DNA of 64,000 nt, from contig CAWGMQ010000006.1 of NCBI GenBank assembly GCA_963823665.1, forward strand, positions 896,001-960,000, read 5' to 3'. Below the pieces are notes generated by a model that saw only the letters and a list, made by a program, of their open reading frames with translations, was not told the origin of the DNA and did not search any database. Below are positions 14,883-27,376 of the stretch, piece by piece. The stretch is from an uncultured Planctomycetota bacterium. Lineage in GTDB: Bacteria; Planctomycetota; Planctomycetia; Isosphaerales; Isosphaeraceae. How positions within the stretch are numbered: position 1 is the stretch's first letter; each line of letters starts with the position of its first letter. The position numbers were made by a program, and so were the translations under genes.

Positions 14883-15025
14883 GGGAATTCAAGACACCCA
14901 TCCGTTGTCACGGCCCTCCGCATCCATTCATTCGTGGCACGCAAATTCGGTGCAAAACCACGGCCTCTGGTCATTTCGAGCACGCAGAAGGCCAGTGCCC
15001 GACGCTCGGCAAACGGTGGGTGTCT
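14883..15025 (+). repeat. Hairpin element copy E1 (right arm resumes at 17038-17044 after intron 1)
   Basis: GGGAATTCAAGACACCCATCC ... GGTGGGTGTCT^GCCATCC; core shared with E2-E5. Confidence 0.9.
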
Positions 15026-17037
15026 TTGCGTCAGGAAAAGCTCGAGAAAGGGGGAAGTGCCTCGAAACACAGAAACCTTTCATCGCGACCCTGCGGGTTA
15101 ACGAATCCCGCCCGGCAGAGCCTGGCCGGCAGCCGGAAGCAAGTCTTGCGTGGGGAGGGGTGACCCTCACTGCGAAGCGTAGACAGCGAGTCCCCATGCC
15201 ATGCTATCGAGCCCCGAAATACTCATCGTGGGAGCCTCCGTTGTAGACACAAGCGGGGGCCGCGTCGACACGCCGCAATGGCCTGGCGTGTTCGGTCCTG
15301 CCGGGGTCCAAGAACATGGCGCAGGGACGCGAGGGTTGCTCGGGAACCTGAGAGCCCCATCCGTCTCCACTGACATTTCCGGCTCGGGAACCGGAATACC
15401 AACTCCCCGGCCCACGACCCCGCGTCGGGTCGCTGGGAGCGAACAGGACGCAAGGGTGGTATCGCCACACGAAGGCAACGAAGTGCGGCGAAAGGGGCGG
15501 ATGGGAGTCGGAGCGTCTCGTAGTACCGTTGAAGCCGGGGAACCACTCCGAGGGACCCGGTGGAGGGAAGGAGACGCCATGTCACACAACCGTTGGAGGG
15601 AAACATGGCGGGTGCATCGGAACCCGTGGACGTGTCCACGAAACAACAACGGATAGCGGAACTCGCTCGGCGAAGCCCGGAGATGGGATTCACATCCCTG
15701 GGGCACTTCATCGACCTCGATTGGCTGCTCACAGCTTACTACCGGACCCGCCAAGACGGGGCGGTGGGCGTAGACGGACAAGATGGCGAGGCCTACGCAG
15801 CGAACCTGGTCCCGAACCTACGGTCGCTGCTGGAACGAGCCAAGTCCGGTACGTACCACGCACCGCCTGTGCGGCGAGTGCATATCCCCAAGGCAGGCTC
15901 AGCGACCGAAACCCGGCCACTGGGAATCCCGACCTTCGAGGATAAAGTGCTCCAGCGTGCTGTCGTGATGGTTCTGGAGGCGATATACGAGCAGGACTTC
16001 AAGAACTGCTCGCATGGCTTCCGGCCCGAGCGATCGGCACACACTGCGTCAGAGAGCCTGTGGCAACAGACGATGAACATGAAGGGCGGATGGGTAGTGG
16101 ATGTGGACATTCGTAAGTTCTTTGACACGATTGACCACGGCCATCTACGCGACTTCCTCAAGCGTCGGGTGCGAGACGGAGTGCTGCTCCGGCTCATCGG
16201 CAAATGGCTCAATGCGGGCGTCTTCGAGAACGGGTGCGTTACGCACCCCGAAATGGGGTCGCCACAAGGGGGTGTGATCAGCCCGATCCTTTCGAATATC
16301 TTCCTGCACTACGTGCTGGACGAGTGGTTCGAGCGGGAGGTTCAGCCTCGGATGATGGGCAGATCGTTCTTGATCCGCTATGCGGACGACTTCGTCATGG
16401 TCTTCTCATGCGAGTCCGACGCACGGCGTGTGATGAATGTGTTGCCCAAACGCTTTGAGAAGTACGGCTTGACCATCCACCCGGACAAGACGCGGCTGGT
16501 GCCGTTCGAGCGGCCATCGGACCGTCCCAAACCGGAAGGCGGACCCCCGCGAACTCCACCAGGGACATTCGACCTGCTGGCGTTCACGCATTACTGGGGT
16601 CGCTCCCGGCAGGGTCGCTGGGTGGTGAAGCGCAAGACGTCCAAAAGTCGATTTCGCCGAGGCCTGCGAACGTTGGCGGACTGGTGTCGCAAAAATCGAC
16701 ATCTACCGCTCAAGGTGCAGCACCGGATACTAGGTCAGAAACTGCTAGGCCACTATGCCTACTACGGAATCACCGGCAACTCCAAAATGTTGTCACGGTT
16801 TCGCAGTGGTGCCACCTGGCTCTGGCAGCACTGGCTGTCGCGCCGCGGGCGCGGCCGTCGGATGACATGGGAACGGTTCGCTCGGTTCCTGAAGCATAAA
16901 CCGCTTCCGGCAGCGATTGCGATCCACTCAGTATGCCGTCTCGTAGCGAACAAGTGACATGACGAGCCGGGTGCCTTAATTGGGCAAGCCCGGCTCTGTG
17001 GGAGCCTTGGGGGAGCGATCCCCCAAGGCGACCCGGC
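15026..17037 (+). mobile_element. Group II intron 1 (RT-encoding, no endonuclease domain)
   Basis: 5' TTGCG; DV 16964-16996 with AGC triad; DVI with bulged A ending ACCCGGC. EBS1 AGACAC (15245-15250) is complementary to 5' exon GTGTCT (15020-15025). Confidence 0.92.
15605..16957 (+). CDS. ltrA: Group II intron reverse transcriptase/maturase without En domain
   Basis: GVDG, RPLGIP, GFRP, GSPQGGVISP, RYADD, maturase HYAYYG. ATG at 15605 follows GGAGGG. Confidence 0.95.
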   Translation: MAGASEPVDVSTKQQRIAELARRSPEMGFTSLGHFIDLDWLLTAYYRTRQDGAVGVDGQDGEAYAANLVPNLRSLLERAKSGTYHAPPVRRVHIPKAGSATETRPLGIPTFEDKVLQRAVVMVLEAIYEQDFKNCSHGFRPERSAHTASESLWQQTMNMKGGWVVDVDIRKFFDTIDHGHLRDFLKRRVRDGVLLRLIGKWLNAGVFENGCVTHPEMGSPQGGVISPILSNIFLHYVLDEWFEREVQPRMMGRSFLIRYADDFVMVFSCESDARRVMNVLPKRFEKYGLTIHPDKTRLVPFERPSDRPKPEGGPPRTPPGTFDLLAFTHYWGRSRQGRWVVKRKTSKSRFRRGLRTLADWCRKNRHLPLKVQHRILGQKLLGHYAYYGITGNSKMLSRFRSGATWLWQHWLSRRGRGRRMTWERFARFLKHKPLPAAIAIHSVCRLVANK

Positions 17038-17051
17038 GCCATCCTGAGATC

Positions 17052-17070
17052 GATGGGTGTCTGCCATCCC
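17052..17070 (+). repeat. Solo right arm of the hairpin element
   Basis: gatgggtgtctgccatccc duplicates the spliced E1 right arm. Confidence 0.75.
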
Positions 17071-17781
17071 TGCGCCAAGAAGCTCGGAAAAGGAGGATCA
17101 TCTCAAATGTGAAACCTTTTAGCGGAACCCTGCGGGTAACCAATCCCGTCCGGCAGAGCCGGGCCAGCAGCCGGAAGTGAGTCTTGCGTGGGGAGAGGCG
17201 ACTCTCACTGCGAAGCGTAGACAGCGAGATCAAACGCTGTGCGATTGAGCCTCGAAATTTTCCCTCTTTGTCCTGAGCCCTCGTCCTTGTCTGACGCGGG
17301 GGCCGAGCCGGGCATTAGCGAAACCTGGACCCACTAGCGTGCCCGGTCAGACCGGGGTCGGAGAACATGGCGAATGATCAGTAGGGTTCCCCGGGAACTT
17401 GGGAGACCTTGTCGTTTCCATCGTGACGGCCGGCCGGAGCACCGGCTTACCAACTCCAGGTTGATCCACAGCTCTGTCCCGAGCTGGTGGGGACGAACAG
17501 GGGACGAACGATGGTATCGCCAAGCGAAGGAAACGAAGCGCGGCGAAATGGACGGCAAGGAGTCGGAGTGCCCCATAGTAGTGTTGAAGCGGGGGAACGG
17601 CCCTCCGGACCCTGTGGAGCGAAGGGGGCACCGCGTTGTGGATGGGAAGTTGGAACCACGCCGAGGACACCGTGCCTCACCAGCGTGTCACCGCGAAACG
17701 ACCTAGTCGTGTGAGGGACAGTGATTCCCCAACGTGACGAGCCGGATGCCTCTTCGACGGGCAAGTCCGGATCTGTGGGAA

Positions 17782-20201
17782 TCGCGAAACGAAGCTGCGG
17801 ATGAGTCTGTTATGACTGGATTTGCAACCAGGACATAACCCGATGTACGACCACCGGAACCCTACCAGGACGTGCGGCCGGAGCAATCCGACCGTGCGAA
17901 GCTCTTGGGACAACGTAACCTCACCTTCGGGTGGTTGGATATCCCGTGAGGGAATCCGGCGACTGCGAACGCCAATGCGGTCGGGGGCCAGGGGTGGATG
18001 GCATGGCTAATCCAGGTGAACTGCCGATAAACGTCGTGAGATCCAACAAGCCAAAGGCGCTGAGAGGCTTGAACCAAAAAGGTACGTGGCCAGGTACAGT
18101 GGGATTTCCCATCCCCTGTCGTCGTCATCCGAGCCACCGGCGGAGAGGCAGAGCCTAAACCATCCGTGATTCATCCGTGGAACGTGGTAAGCCCGTCGCC
18201 CTCCCTTCGGGGTAGGACCGTCGTAAGGCGTCGCCGATGGGGCGGCGGGTGGAGGATGAGGGAGCAAGCCAATGCCGTTCGGTAGTCGATCGGATAGAGG
18301 GTGAGTCCTCCCACGGACGACATCCCCTCACCGCGAAAGCGGTGCCGACTTCCCTCAGGTGTTCCGTCACGAGAGAACCTTGGCCAACCGACTCAGGGAG
18401 ACAAGCAGATATGTCGGCGGCAGAAATGCTTGCTGGTGCGGCTCCCGAGCTTACGCCCGACTGGCACTCCATCGAATGGAAGAAAGTCTGGCGCACAGTC
18501 CGTCGGCTCCAGGCGCGTATCGTGAAGGCTGTTGCGGAGGGCAGATGGAATAAGGTCAAGGCTCTGGTTTATCTGCTCACGCACTCGTTCAGTGGCCGGG
18601 CCCTGGCCATTTTGCGAGTCATCAGTAATTCGGGTGCGAAGACTCCCGGTGTGGACGGAGTTCTCTGGAACACACCGGAAGCCAAGTCGGCTGCTTTCAG
18701 CACTCTGCGTCGGCACGGTTACCAACCGCAACCGCTCCGCCGGGTGTACATTCCCAAAAGCAACGGCAAGCGACGTCCTCTCGGAATTCCCACCATGTCA
18801 GATCGAGCCATGCAGGCATTATACTTGCTAGGCCTCGATCCCATTGCGGAATCTCGAGCCGACGGCCATTCCTATGGCTTTCGGCTGGAACGTCGTTGTG
18901 CCGACGCCCTGGAACAATCTCATATTGTCTTGGGTAATCGGAGCGGTCCAGCATGGATTCTCGAAGGGGACATCAAAGCTTGCTTTGATCGCATCAGTCA
19001 TGACTGGCTCTTGACGCACGTCCCCATGGACCGGCAGTTGCTCGGGCAATGGCTGAAAGTGGGTTTCCTGGAGAAGCACGCCTGGTTCGCCACCACGGAA
19101 GGAACACCTCAAGGCGGGATCATTTCACCCGTCCTGGCGAATTGGACTCTGGATGGACTGCAACGGCTGTTGGCGGAACAGTTCGCCGAGAAGCACGGGC
19201 GACAACGGAAGTTTAAAGTCCACCTGGTCCGCTATGCGGATGACTTCTTGATCACGGGCATCTCAAAGGAACTCCTCCGTGACCAAGTGCAACCTCTCGT
19301 GGCTCATTTCTTGAAGGAACGCGGCTTGGAACTTTCCCACGAGAAAACCCAGATCACGCATGTGGAGGATGGCTTCGATTTCTTGGGGCAGAATGTGCGA
19401 CGCTATCGCTGCGGCAAGGTGTTCACCAAGCCGTCCTTGCGAAACGTGAAGACGTTCTTGAACAAGATACAGGAAACGATCGACGGCTCGGGCAGCCTAA
19501 CGGCAGGAGAGATGATCTGGCGTTTGAATCAGCAGATCAAGGGCTGGACCATGTACCACCGTTACGCGGCGAGCAAGCGCACTTTTACGTACGTGGATCA
19601 CCGGATTTTCCAGAAATTGTGGCGTTGGTGTCGACGACGGCACCAGAACAAAGGCCGGAGGTGGATCAAGGAGAAATACTTCCAGCAAGACGGTTACCGC
19701 CACTGGGTCTTCACCGGTACGCTGTTTGACCAGAAAGGCCAAGGCCGGCCGATCCAGTTGATGGAAGCAGCCAAAGTGAAGATCATTCGTTATGTGAAGA
19801 TCCGGAGCGACGTGAATCCCTACGATCCGAAGTGGGAACTGTACCTGGAAGCACGACTGGGTTGGCAACTGAGCCAAACGCTGGCAGGTCGGGGTCGGAT
19901 CGAATACTTATGGAAGGAACAAGAGGGACGATGCGTGGTCTGTGGTCAACCGCTGCGGATCGCAGAGGAAGACTTGCATCTCCACCATCGCATCTGGCGC
20001 AGCCGGGGCGGTTCTGGCACAGCCGACAACCTGGAGTTGTTGCATGCCAACTGTCATCGGCAGATCCATGTCCAAGAACGACTGACGAAAGCGGCCGCGT
20101 CCTGCGAGGGGCGTTCGTGAAGGCTTGAGCTGCATGAAGGGAAACTTTCACGTGCAGTTCTGAGGGGAGGGGGTGGCGGTAACGTCACCTCCTTACCCGG
20201 C
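17782..20201 (+). mobile_element. Group II intron 3 (chloroplast-like class, RT-X-HNH) nested in intron 2
   Basis: 5' TCGCGAAACGAAG; DV 20127-20160; DVI ending ACCCGGC. EBS1 TTCCCA (18106-18111) pairs with TGGGAA (17776-17781); EBS2 AGATCC (18039-18044) pairs with GGATCT (17769-17774). Confidence 0.92.
18411..20120 (+). CDS. ltrA: Group II intron RT/maturase with C-terminal HNH endonuclease
   Basis: [38 protein letters not shown]...HLHH...[10 protein letters not shown]. Confidence 0.96.
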
Positions 20202-20234
20202 CCCGGGGCGGGCAACCGCCCTGGGTGACCCGGC

Positions 20235-20372
20235 CCCATCCAGTTGTCACGGTCGCCCGCATCCATTCATTTGCGGCTCGCTCGTTCGGCGCAAAACCAC
20301 GGCCCCCGGTCATTTCGAACACGCAGAAGGTCAGTGCCCGACGCCCGACAAAAGGTGCGTGTGTGACATCCC
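20235..20372 (+). repeat. Hairpin element copy E2 (left arm interrupted by intron 2; right-arm target reads GTGTGT)
   Basis: cccatccagttgtcacgg...catccattcatt...ggtgcgtgtgtgacatccc. Confidence 0.88.
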
Positions 20373-21224: not shown

Positions 21225-21376
21225 GAGGAATCCAGGCACCGATCCTTTGTCTCACGGCCTCCGCATCCATTCATTCGCGGCTCGCTCGTTCGGTGCAAAA
21301 CCACGGCCTCTGGTCATTTCGAACACGCAGAAGGCCAGTGCCCGACGCTCGGCAAACGGTGGGTGTCTGACATCCC
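21225..21376 (+). repeat. Hairpin element copy E3, intron-free
   Basis: gaggaatccaggcaccgatcc ... ggtgggtgtctgacatccc; intact GTGTCT target at 21363-21368. Confidence 0.9.
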
Positions 21377-24053: not shown

Positions 24054-24196
24054 GGGATTCCAGACACCCATCCTTTGTCTCACGGCCTCCACATCCATTC
24101 ATTCGCGGCTCGCTCGTTCGGCGCAAAACCACGGCCTCTGGTCAAGTCGAACACGCAGAAGGCCAGTGCCCGATGCTCGGCAAACGGTGGGTGTCT
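24054..24196 (+). repeat. Hairpin element copy E4 (right arm resumes at 24929-24935)
   Basis: GGGATTCCAGACACCCATCC ... GGTGGGTGTCT^GGCATCC. Confidence 0.9.
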
Positions 24197-24928
24197 TTGC
24201 GTCAGGAAAGCTCGAGAAAGGAGGAAGTGCCTCGAAACACAGAAACCTTTCATCGCGACCCTGCGGGTTAACGAATCCCGCCCGGCAGAGCCTGGCCGGC
24301 AGCCGGAAGCAAGTCTTGCGTGGGGAGGGGTGACCCTCACTGCGAAGCGTAGACAGCGAGTCTCCATGCCATGCTATCGAGCCCCGAAATACTCATCGTG
24401 GGAGCCTCCGTTGTAGACACAAGCGGGGGCCGTGTCGACACGCCGCAATGGCCTGGCGTGTTCGGTCCTGCCGGGGTCCAAGAACATGGCGCAGGGACGC
24501 GAGGGTTGCTCGGGAACCTGAGAGCCCCATCCGTCTCCACTGACATTTCCGGCTCGGGAACCGGAATACCAACTCCCCGGCCCACGACCCCGCGTCGGGT
24601 CGCTGGGAGCGAACAAGACGCAAGGGTGGTATCGCCAAACGAAGGCAACGAAGTGCGGCGAAATGGGCGGACGGGAGTCGGAGTGCTCCGTAGTAGCAGT
24701 GAAGCGGGGGAATGGGCCCTCCCAGACCCTGTGGAGCGAAGGGGGTACCGTGTCGCGGACTGGAAGCCGGAACCACGCCGAGGGCATTGGACCTCAGAGC
24801 GCGTCACCGCGAGGCGACCAGATCGTGTGAGGGACAGCGACGCCGCGACATGACGAGCCGGATGCCTTAATTGGGCACGTCCGGATCAGTGGGAGCCCTG
24901 GCGGAGCGATCCGCCAGGGCGACCCGGC
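24197..24928 (+). mobile_element. ORF-less group II intron copy A (732 nt)
   Basis: 5' TTGCG; EBS1 AGACAC at 24415-24420; DV GAGCCGGATGCC..ACGTCCGGATC; DVI ending ACCCGGC; no RT ORF. Confidence 0.92.
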
Positions 24929-26500: not shown

Positions 26501-26644
26501 GAGGTTTCCAGACACCCATCCTTTGTCCCACGGCCCCCGCATCCATTCATTCGCGGCTCGCACGCTCGGCGGAAAACCACGGCCTCTGGTCAATTCGAAC
26601 ACGCAGAAGGCGAGTGCCCGACGCTCGGCAAACGGTGGGTGTCT
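26501..26644 (+). repeat. Hairpin element copy E5 (right arm resumes at 27377-27384)
   Basis: GAGGTTTCCAGACACCCATCC ... GGTGGGTGTCT^GGCATCCC; preceded by a 10-nt stutter of GGTTTCCAGA. Confidence 0.9.
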
Positions 26645-27376
26645 TTGCGTCAGGAAAGCTCGAGAAAGGAGGAAGTGCCTCGAAACACAGAAACCTTTCA
26701 TCGCGACCCTGCGGGTTAACGAATCCCGCCCGGCAGAGCCTGGCCGGCAGCCGGAAGCAAGTCTTGCGTGGGGAGGGGTGACCCTCACTGCGAAGCGTAG
26801 ACAGCGAGTCTCCATGCCATGCTATCGAGCCCCGAAATACTCATCGTGGGAGCCTCCGTTGTAGACACAAGCGGGGGCCGTGTCGACACGCCGCAATGGC
26901 CTGGCGTGTTCGGTCCTGCCGGGGTCCAAGAACATGGCGCAGGGACGCGAGGGTTGCTCGGGAACCTGAGAGCCCCATCCGTCTCCACTGACATTTCCGG
27001 CTCGGGAACCGGAATACCAACTCCCCGGCCCACGACCCCGCGTCGGGTCGCTGGGAGCGAACAAGACGCAAGGGTGGTATCGCCAAACGAAGGCAACGAA
27101 GTGCGGCGAAATGGGCGGACGGGAGTCGGAGTGCTCCGTAGTAGCAGTGAAGCGGGGGAATGGGCCCTCCCAGACCCTGTGGAGCGAAGGGGGTACCGTG
27201 TCGCGGACTGGAAGCCGGAACCACGCCGAGGGCATTGGACCTCAGAGCGCGTCACCGCGAGGCGACCAGATCGTGTGAGGGACAGCGACGCCGCGACATG
27301 ACGAGCCGGATGCCTTAATTGGGCACGTCCGGATCAGTGGGAGCCCTGGCGGAGCGATCCGCCAGGGCGACCCGGC
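26645..27376 (+). mobile_element. ORF-less group II intron copy B (732 nt), apparently identical to copy A
   Basis: Constant offset of 2448 from copy A; the incidental ORF translations are identical; EBS1 at 26863-26868. Confidence 0.92.

Follow-up and report, generated by a model that had tools for sequence, protein, structure and literature searches.

A group II intron with a putative homing site at the domain V/domain VI junction of other group II introns in an uncultured member of the Isosphaeraceae

The inner member of a twintron from an uncultured planctomycete (Isosphaeraceae), hereafter intron 3, is very probably an active retrohoming group II intron of the IIB1/CL1 type, for which the homing site would be the DNA encoding the 3' strand of domain V (DV) and the start of domain VI (DVI) of other group II introns. 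Judging from sequence comparison, its behaviour is that of an intron parasite, inserted at a single exact position in the catalytic end of its hosts, and the specialisation on the DV/DVI of other introns put forward in the original prediction is borne out by 7/7 copies in the genome, by 12/14 relatives elsewhere that have a readable DV-type EBS and by EBS that track host DV variants. Following IIB1/CL1 biology, the lariat RNP would reverse-splice into the DV/DVI site, the HNH domain would cleave the bottom strand within the 3' flank formed by DVI, and the RT would copy the intron by target-primed reverse transcription; given the competition between EBS2-IBS2 pairing and the host DV fold, the inner intron would most likely splice first and restore the host. 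The junction would constitute a perpetual homing site, since it is conserved in intron RNA, intergenic and renewed as host introns spread. Besides, the host RT lies upstream of the insert and is unbroken by it, and could thus serve ORF-less hosts in trans.

The twintron and its surroundings

In the window, i.e. the whole stretch of 64,000 nucleotides analysed (positions 896,001 to 960,000 of contig CAWGMQ010000006.1), Rfam returned RF02005 matches to host-type introns at 15102, 17140, 24272 and 26720; a DUF1559 gene is also present and, like the labels of most close homologues, points to a planctomycete host. The features of interest are as follows.

14890..15025, + strand: dispersed repeat of ~136 nt with inverted ends, its right end being the homing site of the intron 1 family
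15026..17037, + strand: intron 1, host-family intron that encodes an RT (ORF 15605-16957) but no endonuclease, empty
17038-17069: tandem array of GAGATCGGTGGGTGTCT, with genomic counterparts at C3:548797-548863 and C8:1396279-1396348
17070..17781, + strand: outer intron 2, ORF-less, RF02005 type (111.8 bits), domains I-V and the first bases of DVI
17288..17293, + strand: EBS1 of outer intron 2 (TGTCTG), which needs a CAGACA 5' exon, absent here
17739..17773, + strand: host DV of intron 2, AGC triad at 17740-17742, 3' strand (17769-17773) being the IBS2 of intron 3
17776..17781, + strand: IBS1 (TGGGAA), covering the DV-DVI linker plus the 5' strand of the basal helix of DVI
17782..20201, + strand: intron 3, inner group IIB1/CL1-type intron, 2420 nt, start TCGCG, end GGC
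18038, + strand: EBS2a (G) of intron 3, pairing with C17768 (-14)
18040..18044, + strand: EBS2 (GATCC) of intron 3; A18039, just before it, does not vary in the extracted set
18106..18111, + strand: EBS1 (TTCCCA) of intron 3, mostly in the d3 hairpin loop
18411..20120, + strand: intron-encoded protein of intron 3, 569 aa (RVT_N, RT with YADD, GIIM maturase, HNH)
20127..20201, + strand: DV and DVI of intron 3 itself, with AGC triad and bulged A (RF00029, 63.4 bits; fold z -6.6)
20202..20234, + strand: rest of the host DVI, including branch A20228 and the 3' end of the host
20235..20372, + strand: further copy of the ~136-nt repeat, serving as 3' exon for outer intron 2, the family of which homes to the left end of the repeat
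24197..24928, + strand: ORF-less host-family intron, empty, GGATCA variant at 24883
26645..27376, + strand: second copy of the ORF-less host-family intron, empty, site at 27331
Candidate recipient sites for intron 3: GGATCTGTGGGAA and GGATCTGTGGGAG

The ends of intron 3 are fixed by its 7 full genomic copies, which are 100% identical over 2420 nt and the flanks of which diverge exactly at 17782 and 20201. As originally predicted, it is nested precisely in intron 2. The insertion lies 8 nt beyond DV and inside DVI, where the cut falls in the 5' strand, so that nearly the whole upper DVI stem belongs to the 3' flank; an in silico junction of 17781 with 20202 restores a DV hairpin and a DVI with bulged A20228 (-46.5 kcal/mol), resembling the empty intron 1. 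That intron 3 would carry the host DVI as a 3' extension of its own was ruled out, a tandem DVI being absent in 7/7 copies.

In the window, Rfam matched intron 3 with RF02012 at 17839 (105.5 bits) and with RF00029 at 20125-20201 (63.4 bits). The ORF 18411-20120 contains the Pfam domains RVT_N, RVT_1, GIIM and HNH with an intact YADD, and the protein scores 342.6 bits with TIGR04416, above the cutoff of 300. Its nearest PDB match is the 6ME0 maturase (605.7 bits), classed as IIB1/CL1 in the published account (PMC8643678), the next one being LtrA (136.5 bits). From these matches, intron 3 is an intact IIB1/CL1-type group II intron, the RT class being that of the closest solved structure.

The consensus of group II introns is GUGYG at the 5' end and AY at the 3' end, from which the UCGCG...GC ends of intron 3 deviate. 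Position 2 is a C in 7/7 genomic copies, and within the family the first base of the intron covaries with the penultimate one (G1/A in 14 rows, Y1/G in 20, with 3 exceptions in 37). Since a 5' U is also reported for TeI4h (PMC2882425), such a start leaves the IIB1/CL1 membership standing. As for EBS3-IBS3, a covariation scan returned no covarying column, position +1 being C in 7/7 own copies and A or G in relatives. The DV/DVI junction of intron 3 itself matches its own EBS poorly (AGTTCT vs. GGATCT), so that self-invasion would be avoided.

Regarding the hosts, intron 1 encodes a 450-aa RT without HNH and its RNA matches RF02005. Its RT family counts 6 genomic copies, 4 of which hold intron 3; the RT genes appear frameshifted or split in 4/6 (copies on C3, C7 and C11) and are intact in the window copy and at C6:1320043. 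A derivative of intron 1 that lacks the ORF but is 96% identical to it in domains I-III (e.g. 24197-24928) has spread to at least 13 genomic copies, all without intron 3. Outer intron 2 has relatives in the genome at 91-96% identity. CAGACA, the partner of its EBS1, precedes six intron 2 relatives (L010, L012, L013, L014 and L037 in the same genome, plus L039); here, the outer intron is preceded by CCATCC, so that its EBS1 is without 5' exon partner and the window copy is probably impaired in splicing.

RF00029 at its gathering score misses the host DV-DVI at 16960-17037, 17735-17781, 24850-24928 and 27298-27376, and a G stands opposite the A in the triad helix (GGATC) in 3/4 window host introns. 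Further copies of the ~136-nt repeat lie at 21235-21369, 24062-24196 and 26510-26644, about 40 near-full-length genomic matches being counted (40 of 88 candidates scored), and the repeat, the host intron and intron 3 form a three-level nest. The homing site of intron 1, GAGATCGGTGGGTGTCT, also occurs in short tandem arrays (18 matches), which adjoin the non-cognate 5' end of intron 2 and a truncated intron 3 fragment (L008).

Target pairing and site occupancy

EBS1 TTCCCA is the exact reverse complement of TGGGAA at 17776-17781, as had been claimed. With regard to EBS2, the earlier reading of AGATCC (18039-18044) as the exact reverse complement of GGATCT (17769-17774) stands as to the letters, but the covarying helix consists of 5 bp plus EBS2a. 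This was established on an alignment of the 5' ribozyme (123 rows, the sources being 66 loci of genomes, 80 of 187 loci of metagenomes, and 121 genomes of the family) yielding 76 distinct EBS2/exon pairs. The register -8 to -13 shows 4.55 Watson-Crick pairs out of 6, against 1.92 in shuffled pairs (maximum 2.36), and neighbouring registers stay at chance level. Positions -9 to -13 are Watson-Crick paired in 58-68 of the 76 pairs depending on the position, and -14/EBS2a in 64; A18039 faces a T at -8 in only 32. As position -8 shows no covariation, the EBS2 helix is confined to GATCC with -9 to -13, supplemented by G18038 with C-14. EBS1, EBS2 and EBS2a thus pair with -1 to -6, -9 to -13 and -14, respectively, in agreement with the recognition rule given for IIB1 introns, i.e. 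a 5-bp EBS2 plus EBS2a (PMC8643678).

All 7 full copies of intron 3, distributed on 4 contigs, are preceded by the 13-mer GGATCTGTGGGAR of a host DV, the remainder of the host DVI coming after them; an eighth copy, a 3' fragment, also adjoins a DVI. The hosts belong to three diverged families without endonuclease and comprise four RT-encoding intron 1 relatives, one ORF-less intron 1-like and two intron 2-like introns. This 13-mer occurs 9 times in the 16.5-Mb genome (0 for the reversed control), 8 times in the DV of a host intron and once in a remnant keeping DVI; 7 of these sites are filled by intron 3, one is an empty intron 1 copy and one is the remnant.

The near-cognate sites announced for the other three introns of the window are indeed present, at 16992 (GGCTCT in intron 1, mismatched at -11), 24883 and 27331, and all are empty. 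Genome-wide, 15/15 GGATCA sites are empty, though EBS1, the 5-bp EBS2 and EBS2a all match; the occupancy of 7/9 for GGATCTGTGGGAR vs. 0/15 for GGATCA gives a Fisher p = 1e-4, on copies that are not independent. Because -8 lies outside the covarying EBS2 helix, these sites are cognate by the standard rules, and an EBS2 mismatch as the cause of their emptiness is weakened as an explanation. Simple pairing rules do not account for the emptiness, which may reflect either a real role of -8 or a recent spread of that host family. A filled GGATCA site was encountered once, at the rearranged locus L109 of another genome.

Relatives and alternative explanations

Outside this genome, 12/14 relatives with a readable DV-type EBS and a 5' exon sit in an intact host DV junction, the other two being L258, ectopic at a non-intron site in genome G061, and L109. 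This count leaves aside L123, L164 and L260 (in DV, EBS unreadable), L261 (no 5' exon), L118, L120, L233, L248 and L250 (fragmentary or degenerate copies outside an intact DV, their EBS likewise unreadable), L088/L089 (same EBS2, different EBS1, RT 53% identical, not in DV) and a retargeted subclade with different EBS. A predominance of non-intron targets among introns with the same EBS, which the original prediction had singled out as telling against it, is thus contrary to what is observed. In G061, 6/6 host DV sites found are filled. As to the expectation that close RT homologues would have DV as 5' exon, it holds for the full-length ones at 94% identity or more (94-98%), 4/4 of which are in DV (L039, L135-L137), but fails at 81-89%, where most have other EBS and other targets.

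Phylogenies were computed with FastTree and midpoint-rooted (91 RT rows over 430 columns; 83 domain-I rows). In the domain-I tree, a clade with a support of 1.0 (83-98% identity) targets DV except for one nested subclade, L146/147, L108 and L210 (support of 0.998), which switched to non-intron DNA, so that DV specialisation would be reversible. The RTs of the clade members fall into two distant clades, 88-98% and 58% identical to the RT of intron 3, which suggests ORF exchange; on these trees, targeting follows the ribozyme, not the RT. Three insertions (L164, L174 and L202) lie in the DV/DVI of CL1 introns that are themselves related to intron 3, and a DVI remainder is found as 3' flank in four more homologues (L065, L086, L096 and L203). 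At L065 (3216-5160), a third intron type (RF01999) is inserted at the YADD codons, the host RT running into it and an intron 3-type RT running out, as would be left by a triple nest in which the DNA between two insertions at YADD was deleted.

In searches further afield, a pattern search across the phylum gave matches in 5/400 other genomes, none of which was an intron of this clade on inspection, so that its known members come mainly from soil metagenomes and from the family of the host. Among viral contigs, there were one spurious pattern match and 21 loci at no more than 53% identity, and among 300 plasmid records none covered 80% of the query.

That intron 3 would be an ordinary CL1 intron, the EBS of which happens to match an abundant repeat of an intron-rich genome without lasting specialisation, is improbable, even if it survives best among the alternatives. 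EBS change readily among CL1 relatives (41 distinct EBS2a+EBS2 types), most RT homologues at 81-89% have other targets and one subclade abandoned the DV target. Yet, a ribozyme clade diverged to 83% and carrying two RT lineages only 58% identical has retained the target, and the EBS changes follow the DV variants of different host classes: EBS1/exon is TTCCCA/TGGGAA here, CCCCCA/TGGGGG in L136 and CTCCCA/TGGGAG in L137, and in L174, which has a CL1 host, both EBS are altered to fit that class exactly (TCCCCT/AGGGGA and AGAACT/AGTTCT). Moreover, a second lineage occupies the same site, namely a 756-nt ORF-less intron (L172:2438-3193) at the DV/DVI junction of a CL1 intron, the EBS of which match (AGAACT/CCCCCT) and which has in common with intron 3 only a 60-nt patch (73%). 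Its relatives L327 and L328 also adjoin a host DV or DVI (3/3 copies for the lineage), the L327 host being of another type and the insertion lying one base further out. Regarding a deep conservation of DV targeting with compensatory EBS changes, the data point this way on a thin sampling.

Still less credible is a single ancient insertion spread as a composite twintron, the outer intron moving with the inner one inside and without repeated homing. Such a scenario can draw on the fact that 4/7 copies lie in near-identical hosts of the intron 1 family (96-99%), as well as on the basal DVI helix, which could close around the insert, bypass twintrons being documented (PMC7049729). Against it, the three host families are ~72-74% alike, yet the intron 3 copies within them show 100% identity; the same hosts also occur without insert; and in other genomes CL1 hosts are filled by introns with EBS matched to each host, so that this scenario is largely refuted as sole cause. 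Identical inner copies within diverged outer introns rather argue for recent independent insertions, by the same reasoning as that applied to the twintrons of Thermosynechococcus elongatus (PMC2882425), and the 7 identical copies would imply recent mobility.

An assembly artefact or a recombination scar placing the intron beside DV can practically be dismissed: some loci are rearranged (L008, L065, L109), but both junctions are precise in the 7 copies, which lie on 4 contigs, as well as in many other assemblies, and EBS and IBS are complementary. In the interpretation of all these counts, it must be considered that relatives and copies are not independent and that short-read contigs can misjoin flanks across a repeat.

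Splicing, domain VI mosaics and comparison with known nests

In the preferred reading of a DV/DVI-homing intron, an inner-first order of splicing is the likelier one. The IBS2 strand pairs with the host AGC triad, which would make docking of the inner intron and folding of the host DV mutually exclusive and thus favours this order. Alternatively, the 3-bp basal helix of DVI could in principle close around the insert with DV staying contiguous; bypass ('zombie') twintrons exist in plant mitochondria according to the published description (PMC7049729). In public data, contigs from 4 of 24 runs listed (2 RNA, these being contigs of relatives, and 2 DNA) were compared at 85% likeness; the 17781/20202 joint was absent among the joints listed, which speaks neither for nor against splicing. 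An empty host allele was present in one public DNA run, so that even a joined RNA contig would not prove splicing.

Some DVI appear composite. Filled hosts L002 and L003 have an A at -1 opposite an intron 1-type DVI; the A-C mismatch that results weakens the fold (-25.3 kcal/mol, compared with -30.1 and -31.3). In L202, the host of which is a CL1 intron, the DVI remainder is identical to that following L135 and L136 and unlike that of the relatives L138 and L143. These three mosaics fit an exchange of DVI via the shared inner intron, misassembly being possible, above all for L202.

Introns specialised on introns are already known (in DIV, in RT genes and in DI), and what would be new here is the DV/DVI landing site. 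In Euglena plastid twintrons, the inner intron can lie in domain V or VI and inner-first splicing is needed; these are single degenerate insertions in plastid genes and are not known to form a mobile lineage with matched EBS. The T. elongatus twintrons, where ORF-less TeI3 (F3) introns are found within TeI4 (F1) introns, are similar in that an IIB1/CL1-type family homes to a conserved intron site, the inner introns being identical and the outer ones diverged, but in the account given the target belongs to a closely related intron, in the DIV of which it is flanked by two start codons, and the inner intron has no ORF (PMC2882425). In contrast, intron 3 targets the DV/DVI of other intron families and carries its own RT-HNH. 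For the nested introns of Methanosarcina acetivorans, the target is reportedly the ORF of an intron and not its ribozyme core. As summarised in a review, the M. acetivorans nests are otherwise alike in their repeated site-specific homing into group II introns, in non-coding DNA, with a perpetual homing site and deletions by recombination (PMC4424553). In Trichodesmium erythraeum, Tr.e.I7/I8 likewise combines an IIB1-like inner intron with an outer ribozyme, and sequential splicing was studied there, but the insertion is described in domain I and at a single locus in a host gene (PMC4649490). T.el4h (Th.e.I3) and EcI5 have the same protein architecture and EBS1/EBS2/EBS2a recognition, their targets as described not being intron ribozyme domains (PMC8643678). 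Intron-in-intron insertions are further described in DIV in Porphyridium, and in DIV and DI in plant mitochondria (PMC7049729). A lineage homing to DV/DVI was not found in full-text searches of the literature; supplements, the Zimmerly database or subscription papers could list one.

More tentatively, and with odds that we would place against it, the DV/DVI junction may be a niche colonised repeatedly by intron hyperparasites (the CL1 clade and the ORF-less lineage), where host changes at -8 or -11 would allow escape and EBS would follow in an arms-race-like manner, and where identical inserts would act as recombination or trans-splicing hubs swapping the branch-point domain between families and classes. 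If true, DVI swapping via a shared insert would be a route for the modular evolution of group II ribozymes.

The case also points to a blind spot: none of the four host-family introns of the window had a DV-DVI that reached the gathering score of RF00029, and published pipelines are described as missing or discarding nested introns (PMC8919778; PMC4028801). Intron 3 would represent a retroelement whose homing address is the catalytic end of group II intron RNA, across families and with natural compensatory changes. Since the insertion splits DVI, the partner of DV, it can be tested directly at this site whether a fixed order of folding and splicing is required of the inner and outer ribozymes, and homing to this junction may explain mosaic DVI sequences among bacterial introns.
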